Positions 2,210 through 14,007 of a stretch of DNA of 14,007 nt are shown one piece after another. The DNA is from a virus (taxonomy: Duplodnaviria > Heunggongvirae > Uroviricota > Caudoviricetes), in the IMG/VR virus record IMGVR_UViG_3300028453_000018, positions 1 through 14,007 of that record; one strand, written 5' to 3'. Each line of letters starts with the position of its first letter. Position 1 is the stretch's first letter. The translations under genes and the position numbers were made by a program. The notes below the pieces were generated by a model. That model saw nothing but the letters and a program-made list of their open reading frames with translations, was not told the origin of the DNA and searched no databases.

Positions 2210-2603
2210 AGCGGTGCCTTATGTCCGCAATAACCCGGACAAACTGCATCTGTTTGTGGATAACGGTTCGCTGGTTGCCACGGGGGCCAGCTCCATGTCA
2301 TGGGAGTACCGTTACACCCTGAACGCAGTGATTGAGGATTTCAGCGGCGACCAGAATCTGCTGATGGCCCCGGTTATGCTGTGGTTGCGGGATAACCAGC
2401 CCGATGCCATCAATAACCCGGAGTTACGGGAAAAGTTATTCACCTTTGAGGTGGATATTCTGCGCAACGATGTCTGTGATATCAGCCTTAACCTGCAACT
2501 GACAGAGCGTGTGCTGGTCAGCACTGACGGCAGTGTGTCGAACGTTGAAGCGGTAGCGGAACCTGATGAACCTGAAGAAATGTGGACGGTGAAACGTGGC
2601 TGA
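2151..2603 (+). CDS. R: Tail completion protein R (P2 gpR-like)
   Basis: About 150 aa with a gpR-like motif (LHLFVDNGS...), positioned between the lysis genes and S. The start is uncertain: ATG at 2151, or GTG at 2172 preceded by CAGGAGCG; either way it overlaps the end of lysC. Confidence 0.8.
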   Translation: MRVRSETVNKPQSLRHALNKAVPYVRNNPDKLHLFVDNGSLVATGASSMSWEYRYTLNAVIEDFSGDQNLLMAPVMLWLRDNQPDAINNPELREKLFTFEVDILRNDVCDISLNLQLTERVLVSTDGSVSNVEAVAEPDEPEEMWTVKRG

Positions 2604-3042
2604 ATTGCAGAAGGTGGACGACTGGTTGAGTGCCTTGCTGGCGAATCTGGAACCAGCCGCCAGAAGCCGCATGATGCGCCAGCTGGCGCAGGAACTGCGC
2701 CGGACACAGCAGCAGAATATCAGGATGCAGCGCAATCCTGATGGCAGCAGTTATGAACCGCGCAGGGTAACAGCACGCAGCAAGAAGGGGCGCATCAAAC
2801 GTCAGATGTTTGCAAAGCTGCGCACCACAAAATACCTGAAAACTGCCGCCAGCGCCGACTCTGCCAGCGTACAGTTTGAAGGCAAGGTGCAGCGTATTGC
2901 CCGTGTTCACCATTACGGCCTGCGTGATCGCGTCAGTCGCAAAGGACCGGAGGTCCGTTACGCAGAGCGCCGCCTGCTGGGTGTAAATGATGATGTTGAG
3001 GCAATGACCCGCGACATGATTCTGCAATGGCTGGCGGGGTGA
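2596..3042 (+). CDS. S: Tail completion / virion morphogenesis protein S (P2 gpS-like)
   Basis: 148 aa; GTG start at 2596 overlapping the R stop (GTGGCTGA); position and size match P2 gpS. Confidence 0.85.
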   Translation: MAELQKVDDWLSALLANLEPAARSRMMRQLAQELRRTQQQNIRMQRNPDGSSYEPRRVTARSKKGRIKRQMFAKLRTTKYLKTAASADSASVQFEGKVQRIARVHHYGLRDRVSRKGPEVRYAERRLLGVNDDVEAMTRDMILQWLAG

Positions 3043-3046
3043 TCTT

Positions 3047-3064
3047 TGTATCAGCACTGATACA
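3047..3064 (+). promoter_or_regulatory. Candidate Ogr/Delta-type late-promoter activator site (TGT-N12-ACA) upstream of V
   Basis: TGTATCAGCACTGATACA: TGT at 3047-3049, a 12-nt spacer, ACA at 3062-3064, and the whole 18-mer is a near-perfect palindrome. It lies in the 68-bp S-V spacer, where P2 has promoter PV. Confidence 0.55.
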
Positions 3065-3110
3065 AGTTGCAGCACTGCCGCCTTTCTTCCCCTGATGGCA
3101 ACCTTTCCCT

Positions 3111-3689
3111 ATGAACGCACAATTAACCGAAATCATGCGCCTTATCACCAACCTGATCCGCACTGGGGTAGTCACCGAAGTGGACCGGGAAAACTGGCTT
3201 TGTCGGGTGAAAACGGGCGACCTTGAAACCAACTGGATTAACTGGCTGACGCTGCGCGCGGGTAATGCCCGCACATGGTGGAAACCATCGGAAGGTGAGC
3301 AGGTGGTGCTGCTGAGTCTGGGCGGCAATCTGGAGACCGCCTTTGCGCTGCCCGCTGTCTATTCGAATCAGTTCGCACCACCGTCGACGTCGGCGGACGC
3401 CTGCGTGACAGAACATCCTGACGGTGGCTGGTTTGAATACGAACCCGCCACCGGGCGCTGGTATGTCAGGGGCATCAAATCAATGGTCATTGAGGCTGCT
3501 GACAACATCACCCTGAAAACCAGTGAGTTTGTACTGGAGGCTGACCGCACGCGCATTAACAGCGAAGTGGTGATCAATGGTGGCGTTACCCAGGGCGGCG
3601 GAGCGATGAGTTCTAACGGGATCGTGGTTGATGCGCATCAGCATACTGGCGTCCTGAAAGGCGGCGATACAACCGGAGGCCCGGTATGA
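3111..3689 (+). CDS. V: Baseplate spike / assembly protein V (P2 gpV-like)
   Basis: 192 aa, with an N-terminus resembling gpV and a Gly-rich C-terminus (GGDTTGGPV). An in-frame stop lies 18 nt upstream of the ATG, so the start is well defined. Confidence 0.9.
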   Translation: MNAQLTEIMRLITNLIRTGVVTEVDRENWLCRVKTGDLETNWINWLTLRAGNARTWWKPSEGEQVVLLSLGGNLETAFALPAVYSNQFAPPSTSADACVTEHPDGGWFEYEPATGRWYVRGIKSMVIEAADNITLKTSEFVLEADRTRINSEVVINGGVTQGGGAMSSNGIVVDAHQHTGVLKGGDTTGGPV

Positions 3690-7658: not shown

Positions 7659-7681
7659 CCCCGCGCCTGCGGGGATTTTTT
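7659..7681 (+). terminator. Rho-independent terminator after G
   Basis: GC stem CCCCGC (7659-7664) / GCGGGG (7669-7674) with a 4-nt loop, followed by TTTTTT (7676-7681), 8 nt after the G stop codon. Confidence 0.65.
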
Positions 7682-7692
7682 CACCCCGTCGT

Positions 7693-7710
7693 TGTGCCAT
7701 TTTCCATACA
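7693..7710 (+). promoter_or_regulatory. Candidate Ogr/Delta-type late-promoter activator site (TGT-N12-ACA) upstream of FI
   Basis: TGTGCCATTTTCCATACA: TGT at 7693-7695, a 12-nt spacer, ACA at 7708-7710. Its centre is about 85 nt upstream of the FI ATG; the FI ATG has a GGAGAG SD. Confidence 0.5.
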
Positions 7711-7785
7711 AACCCCATCGCGTGCACCCTGCGTGTATCAACCAGAACATAGACAGACCCCCTCTACAACCGGAGAGACTGCCTT

Positions 7786-9974: not shown

Positions 9975-12726
9975 TAACAACCTGCGGCTGCAGGTCATTC
10001 TTAATGCGGTTGACAAACTCACCCGCCCATTCCGTGCTGCACAGGCCAGTTCGAAAGAGCTGGCTGGCGCAATCAGAAACTCCCGTGACGCATTAAAGCA
10101 ACTCAATCAGGCGGGTAACAGCCTGGAAAAATTTCGCAAGCTGCAGGCCGATAACAAGAAGTTAGGCGACAGGCTGAACTATGCCAGACAGAAGGCTAAT
10201 TTGCTTAGCTCTGAGCTGGAGGCGATGGAACAACCATCACAACGGCACCTTGTGGCTTTAGGTCGGCAAACGCTGGCAGTCCAACGCCTGGAAGAACAAC
10301 AAAAATATTTGCAGAAGCAAACGGCGCTTGTGCGTGCAGAACTGTACCGGGCGGGAATTTCTGCGAAAGATGATGCGGGAGCAACTGCCCGTTTAGCCCG
10401 TGAAACATCACGTTATAACCAGGAATTGTCGAAACAGGAGGCGCGGCTGAAGCGACTGGGTGAAGCTCAGCGCAGGATGAATGCGGCGCGTGCCAGTTAT
10501 GCCCGTTCGCTGGAGGTGCGCGATCGTATTGCAGGTGCCGGAGCCACTACCACGGCTGCAGGTCTGGCAATGGGGACGCCAGTGATGGCGGCAGTAAAAA
10601 GCTATACCAGCATGGAAGATGCCATGAAAGGTGTGGCAAAGCAGGTCAATGGTCTGCGTGACGATAATGGCAACCGCACTGCACGTTTTTATGAAATGCA
10701 GGATGCCATCAAGGCTGCCAGCGAACAGTTGCCGATGGAAAAAGGTGCGGTGGACTTCGCTGCACTGGTTGAAGGTGGTGCGCGCATGAACGTCGCAAAC
10801 CCTGACGACAGCTGGGAAGACCAGAAACGTGATCTGCTGGCCTTCGCCAGCACGGCGGCAAAGGCGGCAACAGCCTTTGAGCTGCCAGCGGATGAACTGT
10901 CAGAAAGTCTGGGAAAAATCGCCCAGCTCTACAAAATCCCTACCCGCAATATTGAACAGCTCGGTGATGCGCTGAACTATCTGGATGATAACGCCATGTC
11001 GAAAGGGGCAGACATCATTGATGTGATGCAACGCCTGGGCGGTGTGGCTGATCGTCTGGATTATCGTAAAGCGGCGGCGCTGGGTTCCACCTTCCTGACA
11101 CTGGGTGCTGCGCCGGAGGTTGCAGCCAGTGCAGCAAACGCGATGGTGCGTGAGTTGTCCATTGCCACCATGCAAAGCAAGAGTTTCTTTGAAGGGATGA
11201 ATCTGCTGAAACTCAATCCTGAAGTGATTGAAAAGCAGATGACGAAGGATGCGATGGGAACCATCCAGCGCGTGCTGGAGAAGGTGAACGCACTGCCGCA
11301 GGACAAGCGTCTGTCTGCCATGACCATGTTGTTTGGTAAAGAGTTTGGTGATGACGCGGCGAAACTGGCAAACAACCTGCCGGAACTGCAGCGCCAGCTA
11401 AAACTGACAGCGGGCAATGATGCGCTCGGTTCCATGCAGAAAGAATCCGACATCAACAAAGACTCACTTTCTGCTCAGTGGTTGCTGGTCAAAACCGGAG
11501 CGCAGAACACCTTCAGCAGCCTGGGTGAAACGCTGCGCCAGCCGCTGATGGATATTCTGTACACGGTGAAAAGCATCACGGGAGCGTTGCGCCGCTGGAT
11601 GGAAGCTAACCCGGAACTGACAGGCACACTGATGAAAGTAGCGGCTGTTGTGGCTGCGGTTACCGTAGGCCTCGGCACCTTAGCGGTGGCGCTGGCTGCA
11701 GTGCTGGGGCCGCTGGCAGTCATCCGTCTGGGATTCTCTGTGCTGGGTATCAAAACGTTACCTTCCGTTACGGCAGCAGTAACACGAACCAGCAGCGCGT
11801 TGTCCTGGTTAGCTGGCGCTCCACTGGCACTGCTGCGACGCGGGCTTGCTTCATCGGGCAACGCAGCGGGTTTACTTACTGCGCCGTTGTCGTCTTTGCG
11901 CCGCACGGCATCACTGACGGGGAATGTCCTGAAAACTGTAGCAGGTGTGCCGGTTGCACTGTTGCGGTCTGGATTATCCGGTTTACGTGCTGTTGCTGTG
12001 ATGTTTATGAATCCTCTGGCGGTACTGCGCGGTGGACTGTCTGCCGCAGGCGCGGTGCTGCGAGTACTGGCATCCGGTCCGCTGGCGATGCTGCGCGTTG
12101 CCCTGTATGCCATATCTGGTCTGTTAGGTGCTCTGCTCAGTCCGATAGGTCTTGTGGTTACTGCACTGGCGGGTGTGGCGCTGGTTGTCTGGAAATACTG
12201 GCAACCCATCACCGCATTTCTCGGTGGCGTGGTGGAAGGATTCAAAGCGTCGACAGGTCCCATCAGTGCTGCATTCGAACCACTTAAGCCTGTGTTTCAG
12301 TGGATTGGCGACAAAGTGCAGGCGTTGTGGGGTTGGTTTACTGATCTGCTGACGCCTGTTAAGTCGACCTCTGCTGAACTGCAGAGCGCAGCGGCAATGG
12401 GGCGACGATTCGGGGAGGCTCTGGCGGAGGGGCTGAATATGGTCATGCATCCGCTGGACTCCCTGAAATCCGGTGTTTCCTGGTTGCTGGATAAACTCGG
12501 CATTGTCAGTAAAGAAGCTGCAAAGGCGAAACTGCCGGAAAGCGTGACGCGTCAGCAACCTGCGACGGTGAATGCAGACGGTAAAGTGATGATGCCATCG
12601 GGTGGTTTTCCATCATGGGGATATGGCTTTGCGGGGATGTATGACAGCGGCGGCTATATCCCGCGCGGGCAGTTTGGCATCGTCGGTGAAAACGGGCCGG
12701 AAATTGTTAACGGCCGGCAAATGTGA
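9967..12726 (+). CDS. T: Tail tape measure protein T, N-terminal 919 codons, ending at an apparently premature in-frame TGA
   Basis: Long ORF with an alpha-helical, Q/A/R/E-rich N-terminal half and a hydrophobic repeat region (PLALLRRGL, PVALLRSGL, PLAVLRGGL, PLAMLRVAL), sitting between E' and U as in P2. The frame stops at 12724-12726, but the coding signal continues in the -1 frame. Confidence 0.85.
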   Translation: MSDNNLRLQVILNAVDKLTRPFRAAQASSKELAGAIRNSRDALKQLNQAGNSLEKFRKLQADNKKLGDRLNYARQKANLLSSELEAMEQPSQRHLVALGRQTLAVQRLEEQQKYLQKQTALVRAELYRAGISAKDDAGATARLARETSRYNQELSKQEARLKRLGEAQRRMNAARASYARSLEVRDRIAGAGATTTAAGLAMGTPVMAAVKSYTSMEDAMKGVAKQVNGLRDDNGNRTARFYEMQDAIKAASEQLPMEKGAVDFAALVEGGARMNVANPDDSWEDQKRDLLAFASTAAKAATAFELPADELSESLGKIAQLYKIPTRNIEQLGDALNYLDDNAMSKGADIIDVMQRLGGVADRLDYRKAAALGSTFLTLGAAPEVAASAANAMVRELSIATMQSKSFFEGMNLLKLNPEVIEKQMTKDAMGTIQRVLEKVNALPQDKRLSAMTMLFGKEFGDDAAKLANNLPELQRQLKLTAGNDALGSMQKESDINKDSLSAQWLLVKTGAQNTFSSLGETLRQPLMDILYTVKSITGALRRWMEANPELTGTLMKVAAVVAAVTVGLGTLAVALAAVLGPLAVIRLGFSVLGIKTLPSVTAAVTRTSSALSWLAGAPLALLRRGLASSGNAAGLLTAPLSSLRRTASLTGNVLKTVAGVPVALLRSGLSGLRAVAVMFMNPLAVLRGGLSAAGAVLRVLASGPLAMLRVALYAISGLLGALLSPIGLVVTALAGVALVVWKYWQPITAFLGGVVEGFKASTGPISAAFEPLKPVFQWIGDKVQALWGWFTDLLTPVKSTSAELQSAAAMGRRFGEALAEGLNMVMHPLDSLKSGVSWLLDKLGIVSKEAAKAKLPESVTRQQPATVNADGKVMMPSGGFPSWGYGFAGMYDSGGYIPRGQFGIVGENGPEIVNGRQM

Positions 12727-13525: not shown

Positions 13526-14007
13526 ATTTCAGCTCTGAACTGCTTAACAAAGGCAACAAAACTCCCGCATTCAGCATCAGTATTGAGGGCAGGGATATCA
13601 CCACTGTGCTGGATAACCGCCTGATGAGTTTGACGCTGACGGATAACCGGGGCTTTGAAGCGGACCAGCTTGATCTGGAGTTGGATGACGCTGACGGAAA
13701 AATCGTGCTGCCGCGCCGTGGTGCGGTCATTACGCTGGCGCTGGGCTGGAAGGGGCAGCCGCTTTTCCCGAAAGGGGCATTCACAGTGGACGAGATTGAA
13801 CACACTGGCGCACCGGACCGCCTGACTATCCGGGCGCGAAGTGCTGATTTTCGGGAAACGCTGAATACCCGCCGTGAAAAATCGTGGCATAAGACCACCG
13901 TCGGGGAAGTGGTGAAGGAAATAGCCGCGCGGCACAAGCTGAAGATGGCACTGGGAAAAGACCTGCCGTCACTCTCATTAGTCTGGTGTATATGCTCCAC
14001 GGGCTTA
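13522..14007 (+). CDS. D: Tail protein D (late control gene D family), 5' portion only; continues beyond the window
   Basis: GTG at 13522 overlaps the U stop (GTGA). The frame is open to the window end (VNFSSELLNKGNKTPAFSISIEGRDITTVLDNRLMSLTLTDNRGFEADQLDLELDDADGK...), the position after U matches P2, and the N-terminal motif resembles the Phage_GPD family. Confidence 0.75.
   Translation, partial: MNFSSELLNKGNKTPAFSISIEGRDITTVLDNRLMSLTLTDNRGFEADQLDLELDDADGKIVLPRRGAVITLALGWKGQPLFPKGAFTVDEIEHTGAPDRLTIRARSADFRETLNTRREKSWHKTTVGEVVKEIAARHKLKMALGKDLPSLSLVWCICSTGL

Follow-up and report, generated by a model that had tools for sequence, protein, structure and literature searches.

A predicted Ogr/B-type activator site and a probable leaderless start for gene V in the late region of a P2-like prophage

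The window, by which we mean the whole 14,007 nt stretch analysed here, contains the late region of a P2-like prophage, as judged by its gene order and Pfam matches. The genes run in the order X, holin, lysis genes, R, S, V, W, J, I, H, G, FI, FII, E, T and U, followed by the start of D, within which the window ends (Table 1). Its nearest phage records are Klebsiella and Escherichia P2-like phages (96-97% identity), with SopEPhi and Fels-2 next among phage records at about 83% identity to the window, and the E. coli CI5 prophage, which is 186/Fels-2-like in having CI, CII, Fil and DinI/Tum-like genes, is 99.8% identical over the S-V region. A mosaic boundary within D is suggested because the last 39 nt of the window (13969-14007, inside D) are unaligned in the best E. 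coli matches, which elsewhere are 99% identical (query positions 1-1169 of 1208). One E. coli genome carries, adjoining ssrA, a defective prophage remnant that has no V gene.

Table 1. Coordinates of features in the window around the V operon
Feature	Position	Strand	Basis
Gene S (tail completion), last gene of the preceding late operon	2596..3042	+	Pfam Phage_tail_S, 3.8e-42; ORF list
Predicted Ogr/B-type activator-binding dyad of the V-operon late promoter, TTGT-N12-ACAA	3046..3065	no strand	Position as P2 pV site; conservation in relatives
Predicted extended -10: TG (3096-3097), G, hexamer CAACCT (3099-3104), at -15 to -7 from the A of the ATG	3096..3104	+	Sequence and profile of relatives
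Predicted transcription start on the A of the V start codon (leaderless mRNA)	3111	+	P2 annotation; -10 and dyad locked to the ATG; no Shine-Dalgarno sequence
Gene V (baseplate spike/assembly protein V), head of the V-W-J-I-H-G operon	3111..3689	+	Pfam Phage_base_V, 1.1e-17, and GpV Apex motif; ORF list
Intrinsic terminator (CCCCGCGCCTGCGGGG and T-run) at the end of the V operon	7659..7680	+	Terminator scan
Second dyad TTGTGCCATTTTCCATACAA, upstream of tail sheath gene FI (ATG 7786)	7692..7711	no strand	TTGT-N12-ACAA, placed as P2 pF/186 pJ

The S and V genes are separated by a compact gap of 68 nt, in which the 18-mer TGTATCAGCACTGATACA (3047-3064), an exact match to TGT-N12-ACA, starts 5 nt after the S stop codon (3040-3042). 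The first-pass annotation had pointed to this 18-mer as a palindrome, and it proves to be longer still, as inclusion of one flanking base on each side gives a palindrome of 20 nt with 9 bp arms (9+2+9), TTGTATCAG-CA-CTGATACAA. Its centre, which had been placed about 55 nt before the V ATG, is at 3055.5, or 55.5 nt before the A of that codon. The TGT-N12-ACA consensus is described together with four promoters (PP, PO, PV and PF) and an Ogr zinc finger of the form CX2CX22CX4C in the account of PMC3931495.

The frequency of such elements in the window gives a mixed picture. There are five matches to TGT-N12-ACA against 3.9 expected, with no enrichment, and three palindromes with 8 bp arms and a gap of 0-4 nt (two of them at the dyad site) against 1.1 expected, a number that 15% of simulations attain. 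The sole other palindrome of this kind is the perfect 16 nt TGCGCCAGCTGGCGCA in the interior of gene S (2675-2690). Because both the TGT-N12-ACA pattern and the 8-bp-arm palindromes are near their chance levels, the palindrome alone is no proof of function. The longer form TTGT-N12-ACAA occurs twice against 0.21 expected, with two copies attained in 3 of 200 shuffles, and the two copies occupy the S-V and G-FI gaps, which are the places of PV and PF in P2. The significance of the dyad would thus come from its position and its conservation in relatives, the palindrome itself providing no basis for it.

The absence of a Shine-Dalgarno sequence before V, also remarked upon initially, is evident from duplex energies: the best pairing of positions -20 to -3 with the 16S 3' end is -1.8 kcal/mol for V and -3.9 to -10.3 kcal/mol for 16 other genes, making V the weakest match among the 17 window genes checked. 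W and the later genes of the operon carry GGAG-type ribosome sites. A start further upstream is ruled out because there is an in-frame TGA at 3093-3095. The ATG at 3135 was considered as an alternative start and rejected; it likewise has no Shine-Dalgarno sequence (+0.1 kcal/mol), the first ATG, like codons 2-5, is retained in every relative, and the corresponding residue of P2 V is not a Met. V therefore combines the two properties expected of a leaderless mRNA, namely no Shine-Dalgarno sequence and a start codon that is AUG, not GUG or UUG.

The proposed -10 hexamer agrees with the consensus at two positions only (A at -11 and T at -7), and a consensus scan found no sigma-70 -35/-10 pair at the V promoter, as would be expected of an activator-dependent promoter. 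A recognisable -10 accompanied by a poor -35, the arrangement that characterizes P2-type late promoters, is what is seen at V. A scan of the window for intrinsic terminators between S and V gave none that was convincing, the only candidate being a weak one at 3019-3040; since there is no S-V terminator in the window, read-through transcripts from the upstream operon probably carry V as well, in which the V AUG would be an internal one lacking a Shine-Dalgarno sequence.

The geometry of the V promoter matches the annotation of P2. The P2 RefSeq record (NC_001895) lists 10239-10266 as 'activator binding site; activation of pV promoter' and places the V-operon transcription start at 10308, where the V coding sequence (10308-10943) also begins; the pV activator site is centred 55.5 nt upstream of the annotated start, a figure identical to that in the window. 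At the other P2 late promoters the sites are 55-58 nt from the starts, with leaders of 23 nt for P, 40 nt for O and about 25 nt for FI. The P2 V start is taken here from this database annotation and from a secondary citation, P2 being named in the discussion of leaderless genes in PMC4633059 among the few sources of such genes studied in E. coli, with reference to Christie & Calendar (1985), a paper on its four late promoters. The spacing had at first been called unusual, with the suggestion that the site might otherwise lie at a different distance from the start than it does in P2; the equal distance of 55.5 nt in P2 speaks against both, this being the canonical geometry of the promoter. The deduction that this geometry implies a leaderless V mRNA was right, because the P2 RefSeq start coincides with the V start codon at the same spacing, the start in the window itself being a predicted one. 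To call a leaderless mRNA unusual is justified for E. coli genes generally, but for V it is documented in P2 and conserved in relatives.

A scan with the V protein, using one genome per bacterial species, gave 65 loci, which were re-anchored on the V start codon and dereplicated to 44 representatives that share less than 80% identity in the 80 nt preceding V. Of these 44, 34 have an exact TGT-N12-ACA with its centre 54.5-57.5 nt from the V ATG, where about 0.001 per locus would be expected by chance; 25 of these are at 55.5 nt, seven at 56.5 nt and one each at 54.5 and 57.5 nt, and the sequence surrounding the dyad is otherwise unrelated among the relatives. When 43 representatives are aligned on the ATG without gaps, information is confined, apart from a weak signal at -35, to TTGT (-65 to -62), ACAA (-49 to -46) and, between the dyad and the ATG, G at -14 (30/43), C at -12, A at -11 (35/43) and T at -7 (38/43). 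The -35 is weakly conserved (T in 26/43), and positions -6 to -2 contain no information, so that nothing is found at the place of a Shine-Dalgarno sequence; the start codon is ATG in all 43. Taken together, the TG at -15/-14, the A at -11 and the T at -7 would constitute an extended -10 suitably placed for transcription to start at the A of the ATG. These relatives, together with the position of the P2 site, support the original assignment of the dyad to the V-operon late promoter as an activator site of the P2 type (Ogr/B/Delta).

Codons 2-5 of V (AAC GCA CAA YTN; 3114-3125, and the homologous positions in loci L003-L065) have a wobble A in GCA in 33 of 43 relatives and in CAA in 39 of 43, both of these being non-preferred codons in E. 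coli. This bias may reflect selection on the 5' end of a leaderless mRNA, or a general preference for low structure near starts.

The compact 68 nt S-V gap is present in about 20 of the 65 loci, and in others S ends from 570 to more than 1,300 nt upstream of V, or beyond the 1.5 kb flank. The dyad keeps its distance of about 55.5 nt from V whether or not cargo separates S from V, and because this spacing is maintained despite the cargo, the dyad goes with V and not with the S terminus. The junction of S and V is a hotspot for cargo, with the TTGT of the dyad forming the right boundary of the variable DNA. Long inserts are found in L009, L011, L012, L014, L016, L020, L022, L030, L037, L039, L040, L043, L045, L047 and L062 (upstream of position 1501 in each), the P2 insert with orf30 is at 1369-2308 of L001, and extra junction genes in phage records include one for an FRG-domain protein (SEN8) and others for hypothetical proteins (RE2010 and Cartapus).

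Two loci from Scandinavium and Tatumella prophages (L015, 1413-1515, and L029) have the dyad centred 68.5 nt from the V ATG. Both have TATAGT at -25 to -20, and the extra 13 nt of leader carries a ribosome site, AAGAGGA or AGAAGG. The promoter in these prophages thus keeps its internal geometry while the added leader brings in a ribosome site, and they provide a natural control that supports a leaderless arrangement elsewhere.

The pronounced symmetry of the window dyad is a separate matter. Among the 34 sites of the relatives the outermost pair (0/19) is complementary in 28, pairs 1-3 are complementary in all 34, and inside the N12 a mean of 2.1 of six pairs is complementary against 1.5 by chance, such that the symmetry is confined to the outer TTGT/ACAA; the left half favours TGT-R-Y-C-A. 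The window dyad, with five of its six inner pairs complementary, is the most palindromic of all the sites compared, and the Fels-2 counterpart is TGTGCCA...TGGCACA. Because the inner pairs are poorly conserved in relatives, the extended symmetry is a feature of this sub-lineage and no requirement of the element.

We favour the interpretation that the dyad is the activator site of the PV late promoter in a Fels-2/186-like P2-type prophage, with transcription predicted to start on or near A3111 and to give a leaderless V mRNA, and we put the probability of this at about 0.8. Ogr, B and Delta are zinc-finger activators whose binding site is the dyad near -55 and whose effect is exerted through the RNA polymerase alpha subunit of the host (compare the rpoA109 phenotype). 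Late in the lytic cycle a small zinc-finger protein of the Ogr/B type would be made from a gene located just after D, beyond the window; this protein would bind the TTGT-N12-ACAA dyad, centred near -55, and recruit the host sigma-70 RNA polymerase to the weak -35 and the extended -10 (TGgCAACCT), with transcription starting at A3111 or within about a base of it. The resulting V-W-J-I-H-G mRNA would be leaderless for V, the 5'-terminal AUG being translated without a Shine-Dalgarno sequence, and W and the later genes would be translated from their own GGAG-type sites.

The same activator site might serve a V mRNA that is not leaderless, either because the start is displaced or because V is expressed mostly by read-through from the O...S operon with internal initiation independent of a Shine-Dalgarno sequence. 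The lack of a convincing terminator between S and V and the weakness of the -10 hexamer are both compatible with this, and the variation of 1 nt either way in the spacing of the relatives means that the start could be 1-2 nt away from the A. We nonetheless consider it unlikely, given that the P2 annotation places the start on the ATG itself, that the -10 and the dyad are at a fixed distance from the ATG in very diverged sequences, and that the lone lineage with extra distance has gained a Shine-Dalgarno sequence. Moreover, the start codon is ATG in every relative, and in leaderless initiation in E. coli GTG is less than 10% as active as ATG, according to the summary given in PMC4633059, while an internal AUG without a Shine-Dalgarno sequence would be poorly translated on read-through transcripts.

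It is far less probable that the palindrome acts as a hairpin in RNA or DNA that ends the S transcript, whether as a terminator, a 3' stabilizer or a processing site. Its start 5 nt after the S stop codon, the possibility of a 9 bp RNA hairpin and the changes on both arms in Fels-2 that preserve pairing are all in keeping with such a role, but the A/T-rich stem runs into AGUUGCAGC with no U-run, the terminator scan omits the dyad, and the folding energy of the region is unremarkable (z = -1.55). Pairing within the N12 is not conserved, the window being the extreme case; in loci with cargo between S and V the dyad is still 55.5 nt from V, and away from S; and the outer motif recurs at FI and P/O without the inner symmetry. 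We have rejected a terminator or hairpin role for the dyad, which has neither the G+C-rich stem nor the U-run of a terminator. That the palindrome is a functionless product of chance is scarcely credible, for although patterns of its kind are about as frequent in the window as chance predicts, a dyad so specific in position in 34 of 44 diverged relatives, at a place homologous to the annotated P2 site and with the TTGT-N12-ACAA form restricted in the window to the two expected promoter positions, is a different matter.

A PV late promoter with an Ogr/B-type activator site is expected to have sister sites at other late operons and a cognate activator gene, and both are seen in the 99.8%-identical CI5 prophage. 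V heads the V-W-J-I-H-G late operon, and sister sites are present at FI in the window and at P/O, V and FI in CI5 and Klebsiella phage 4LV2017. The FI dyad in the window is centred 84.5 nt before the FI ATG and begins 12 nt after the strong terminator that ends the V operon; it is predicted to be a late promoter equivalent to PF and pJ, with a leader of about 26-29 nt containing GGAG. The CI5 prophage has nine TGT-N12-ACA matches, of which those in the P/O and S-V gaps and in the gap upstream of FI bear TTGT...ACAA flanks, and directly after D it has a gene annotated as 'ogr/Delta-like zinc finger' (Pfam Ogr_Delta, 5e-22; CX2CX22CX4C). Both of the checks proposed in the first-pass annotation, for an ogr-like zinc-finger gene and for the same dyad upstream of the capsid operons, are thus answered positively in this prophage. 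The same pattern of dyads, along with an annotated Ogr-like gene, likewise directly after D, is present in 4LV2017.

The terminase gene P offers a parallel to V in some of these phages. Four of them (Fels-2, CI5, 4LV2017 and Yersinia phage MLG42) have the centre of the P/O dyad exactly 55.5 nt before the P ATG, TATGTT or TAGGTT at -12 to -7 and no clear Shine-Dalgarno sequence; for YenM06.16-2 the corresponding figure is 56.5 nt, and TAGCCT occupies -12 to -7. P2 and 186 have GTAGCCT as the -10, then a 23 nt leader with GAGG before P, and the distance between the P and O ATG codons is 143 nt in CI5, 174 nt in P2 and 166 nt in 186. The P promoter loci compared are at 14440-14640 of L071 (minus strand), approximately 2650-2750 of L158, approximately 15667-15780 of L068, and upstream of 401 in L154, L155 and L156; a scan of viral contigs for the terminase P gave only loci of about 100% identity, and the comparison rests on six records. 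From these sequences P may be leaderless too in the lineage of the window prophage.

Two further features of the P region can be noted. In 4LV2017 (L068, 15667 against 15715) the RefSeq P start is 48 nt (16 codons) downstream of the start that corresponds to those of the CI5 PGAP annotation and Fels-2; the upstream ATG looks correct, since the residues ahead of the RefSeq start (DPRRQA) are shared with P2 P. A second TGT-N12-ACA, TGTGCCATGAACACCACA on the P strand (L071, 14482-14499), overlaps the P start in CI5, 4LV2017 and MLG42 and is broken in Fels-2 (TGGGCC), and is probably a chance match within coding sequence.

Extending this to the group as a whole, we tentatively propose, at somewhat under even odds, that a leaderless start is a selected and recurrent design of P2-like late operons, used for V in almost all enterobacterial P2-like lineages and for P in those of the Fels-2/Elveevirus type, to which the window prophage belongs, with lineages switching between designs by gain or loss of a short segment bearing a Shine-Dalgarno sequence, of which V in L015 and L029 is an example. 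If true, the leaderless start could set a low output of the first cistron, or make it dependent on the condition of the translation machinery in late infection.

For annotation, the V start can be fixed at 3111 and predicted PV and PF late promoters marked in the window; because a leaderless mRNA would explain why V has no ribosome-binding site, gene callers should leave the V start alone. As the orthologue of P2 PV, with the same geometry, the element is well understood and adds little to the biology beyond that of P2. The gain is a comparative one: in dozens of loci with otherwise unrelated sequence upstream of V, the distances between dyad, -10 and ATG are held constant, and the sole lineage to depart from them (L015 and L029) has acquired a ribosome site. 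This is good indirect evidence that a leaderless V mRNA, as described for P2, is the rule in this phage family and is maintained by selection.

The window resembles P2 in having its activator site before V and after S, the end of the O operon, at 55.5 nt from the ATG, in having no Shine-Dalgarno sequence and a -10 of the CAAnCT type (CAATCT in P2 and CAACCT in the window), and, as seen in prophages near-identical to the window, in the position of an Ogr-type activator gene after D. It differs in that S and V in P2 are separated by 940 nt containing a putative terminator and the non-essential, reverse-strand orf30, as compared with 68 nt and no terminator here; in that P2 PV has no exact TGT-N12-ACA (it can be read as TGT-N14-ACA or TGT-N11-ACA), whereas the window has a near-perfect 20 nt palindrome; and in the V proteins, which are about 42% identical. 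The FI dyad is like P2 pF and 186 pJ, where activator sites lie in the same place and leaders are about 24-26 nt, and the terminator of the V operon is equivalent to 186 t45 and the putative V-operon terminator of P2.

The prophage is 186/Fels-2-like in type, as judged from its close relative CI5, and the corresponding gap between the S and V homologues in 186 is 69 nt. The B-dependent late promoters of 186 taken for comparison are that of orf32, pV/p12 and pJ. Upstream of 186 orf32 a TTGT starts 65 nt before the ATG, the -10 is CATTCT and there is no Shine-Dalgarno sequence, as in the window, but the right half-site is not ACA (CGG/CCA); the orf32 promoter and start are unannotated in the 186 record examined, and a search of the literature found no mapped orf32 promoter. 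Among the leaderless mRNAs of mobile elements in E. coli, of which lambda cI transcribed from PRM, Tn1721 tetR and P2 V are examples, the predicted V mRNA of the window would be similar in its 5'-terminal AUG and its lack of a 5' untranslated region and Shine-Dalgarno sequence; unlike the others, V heads a long structural operon, the later genes of which have normal ribosome sites.
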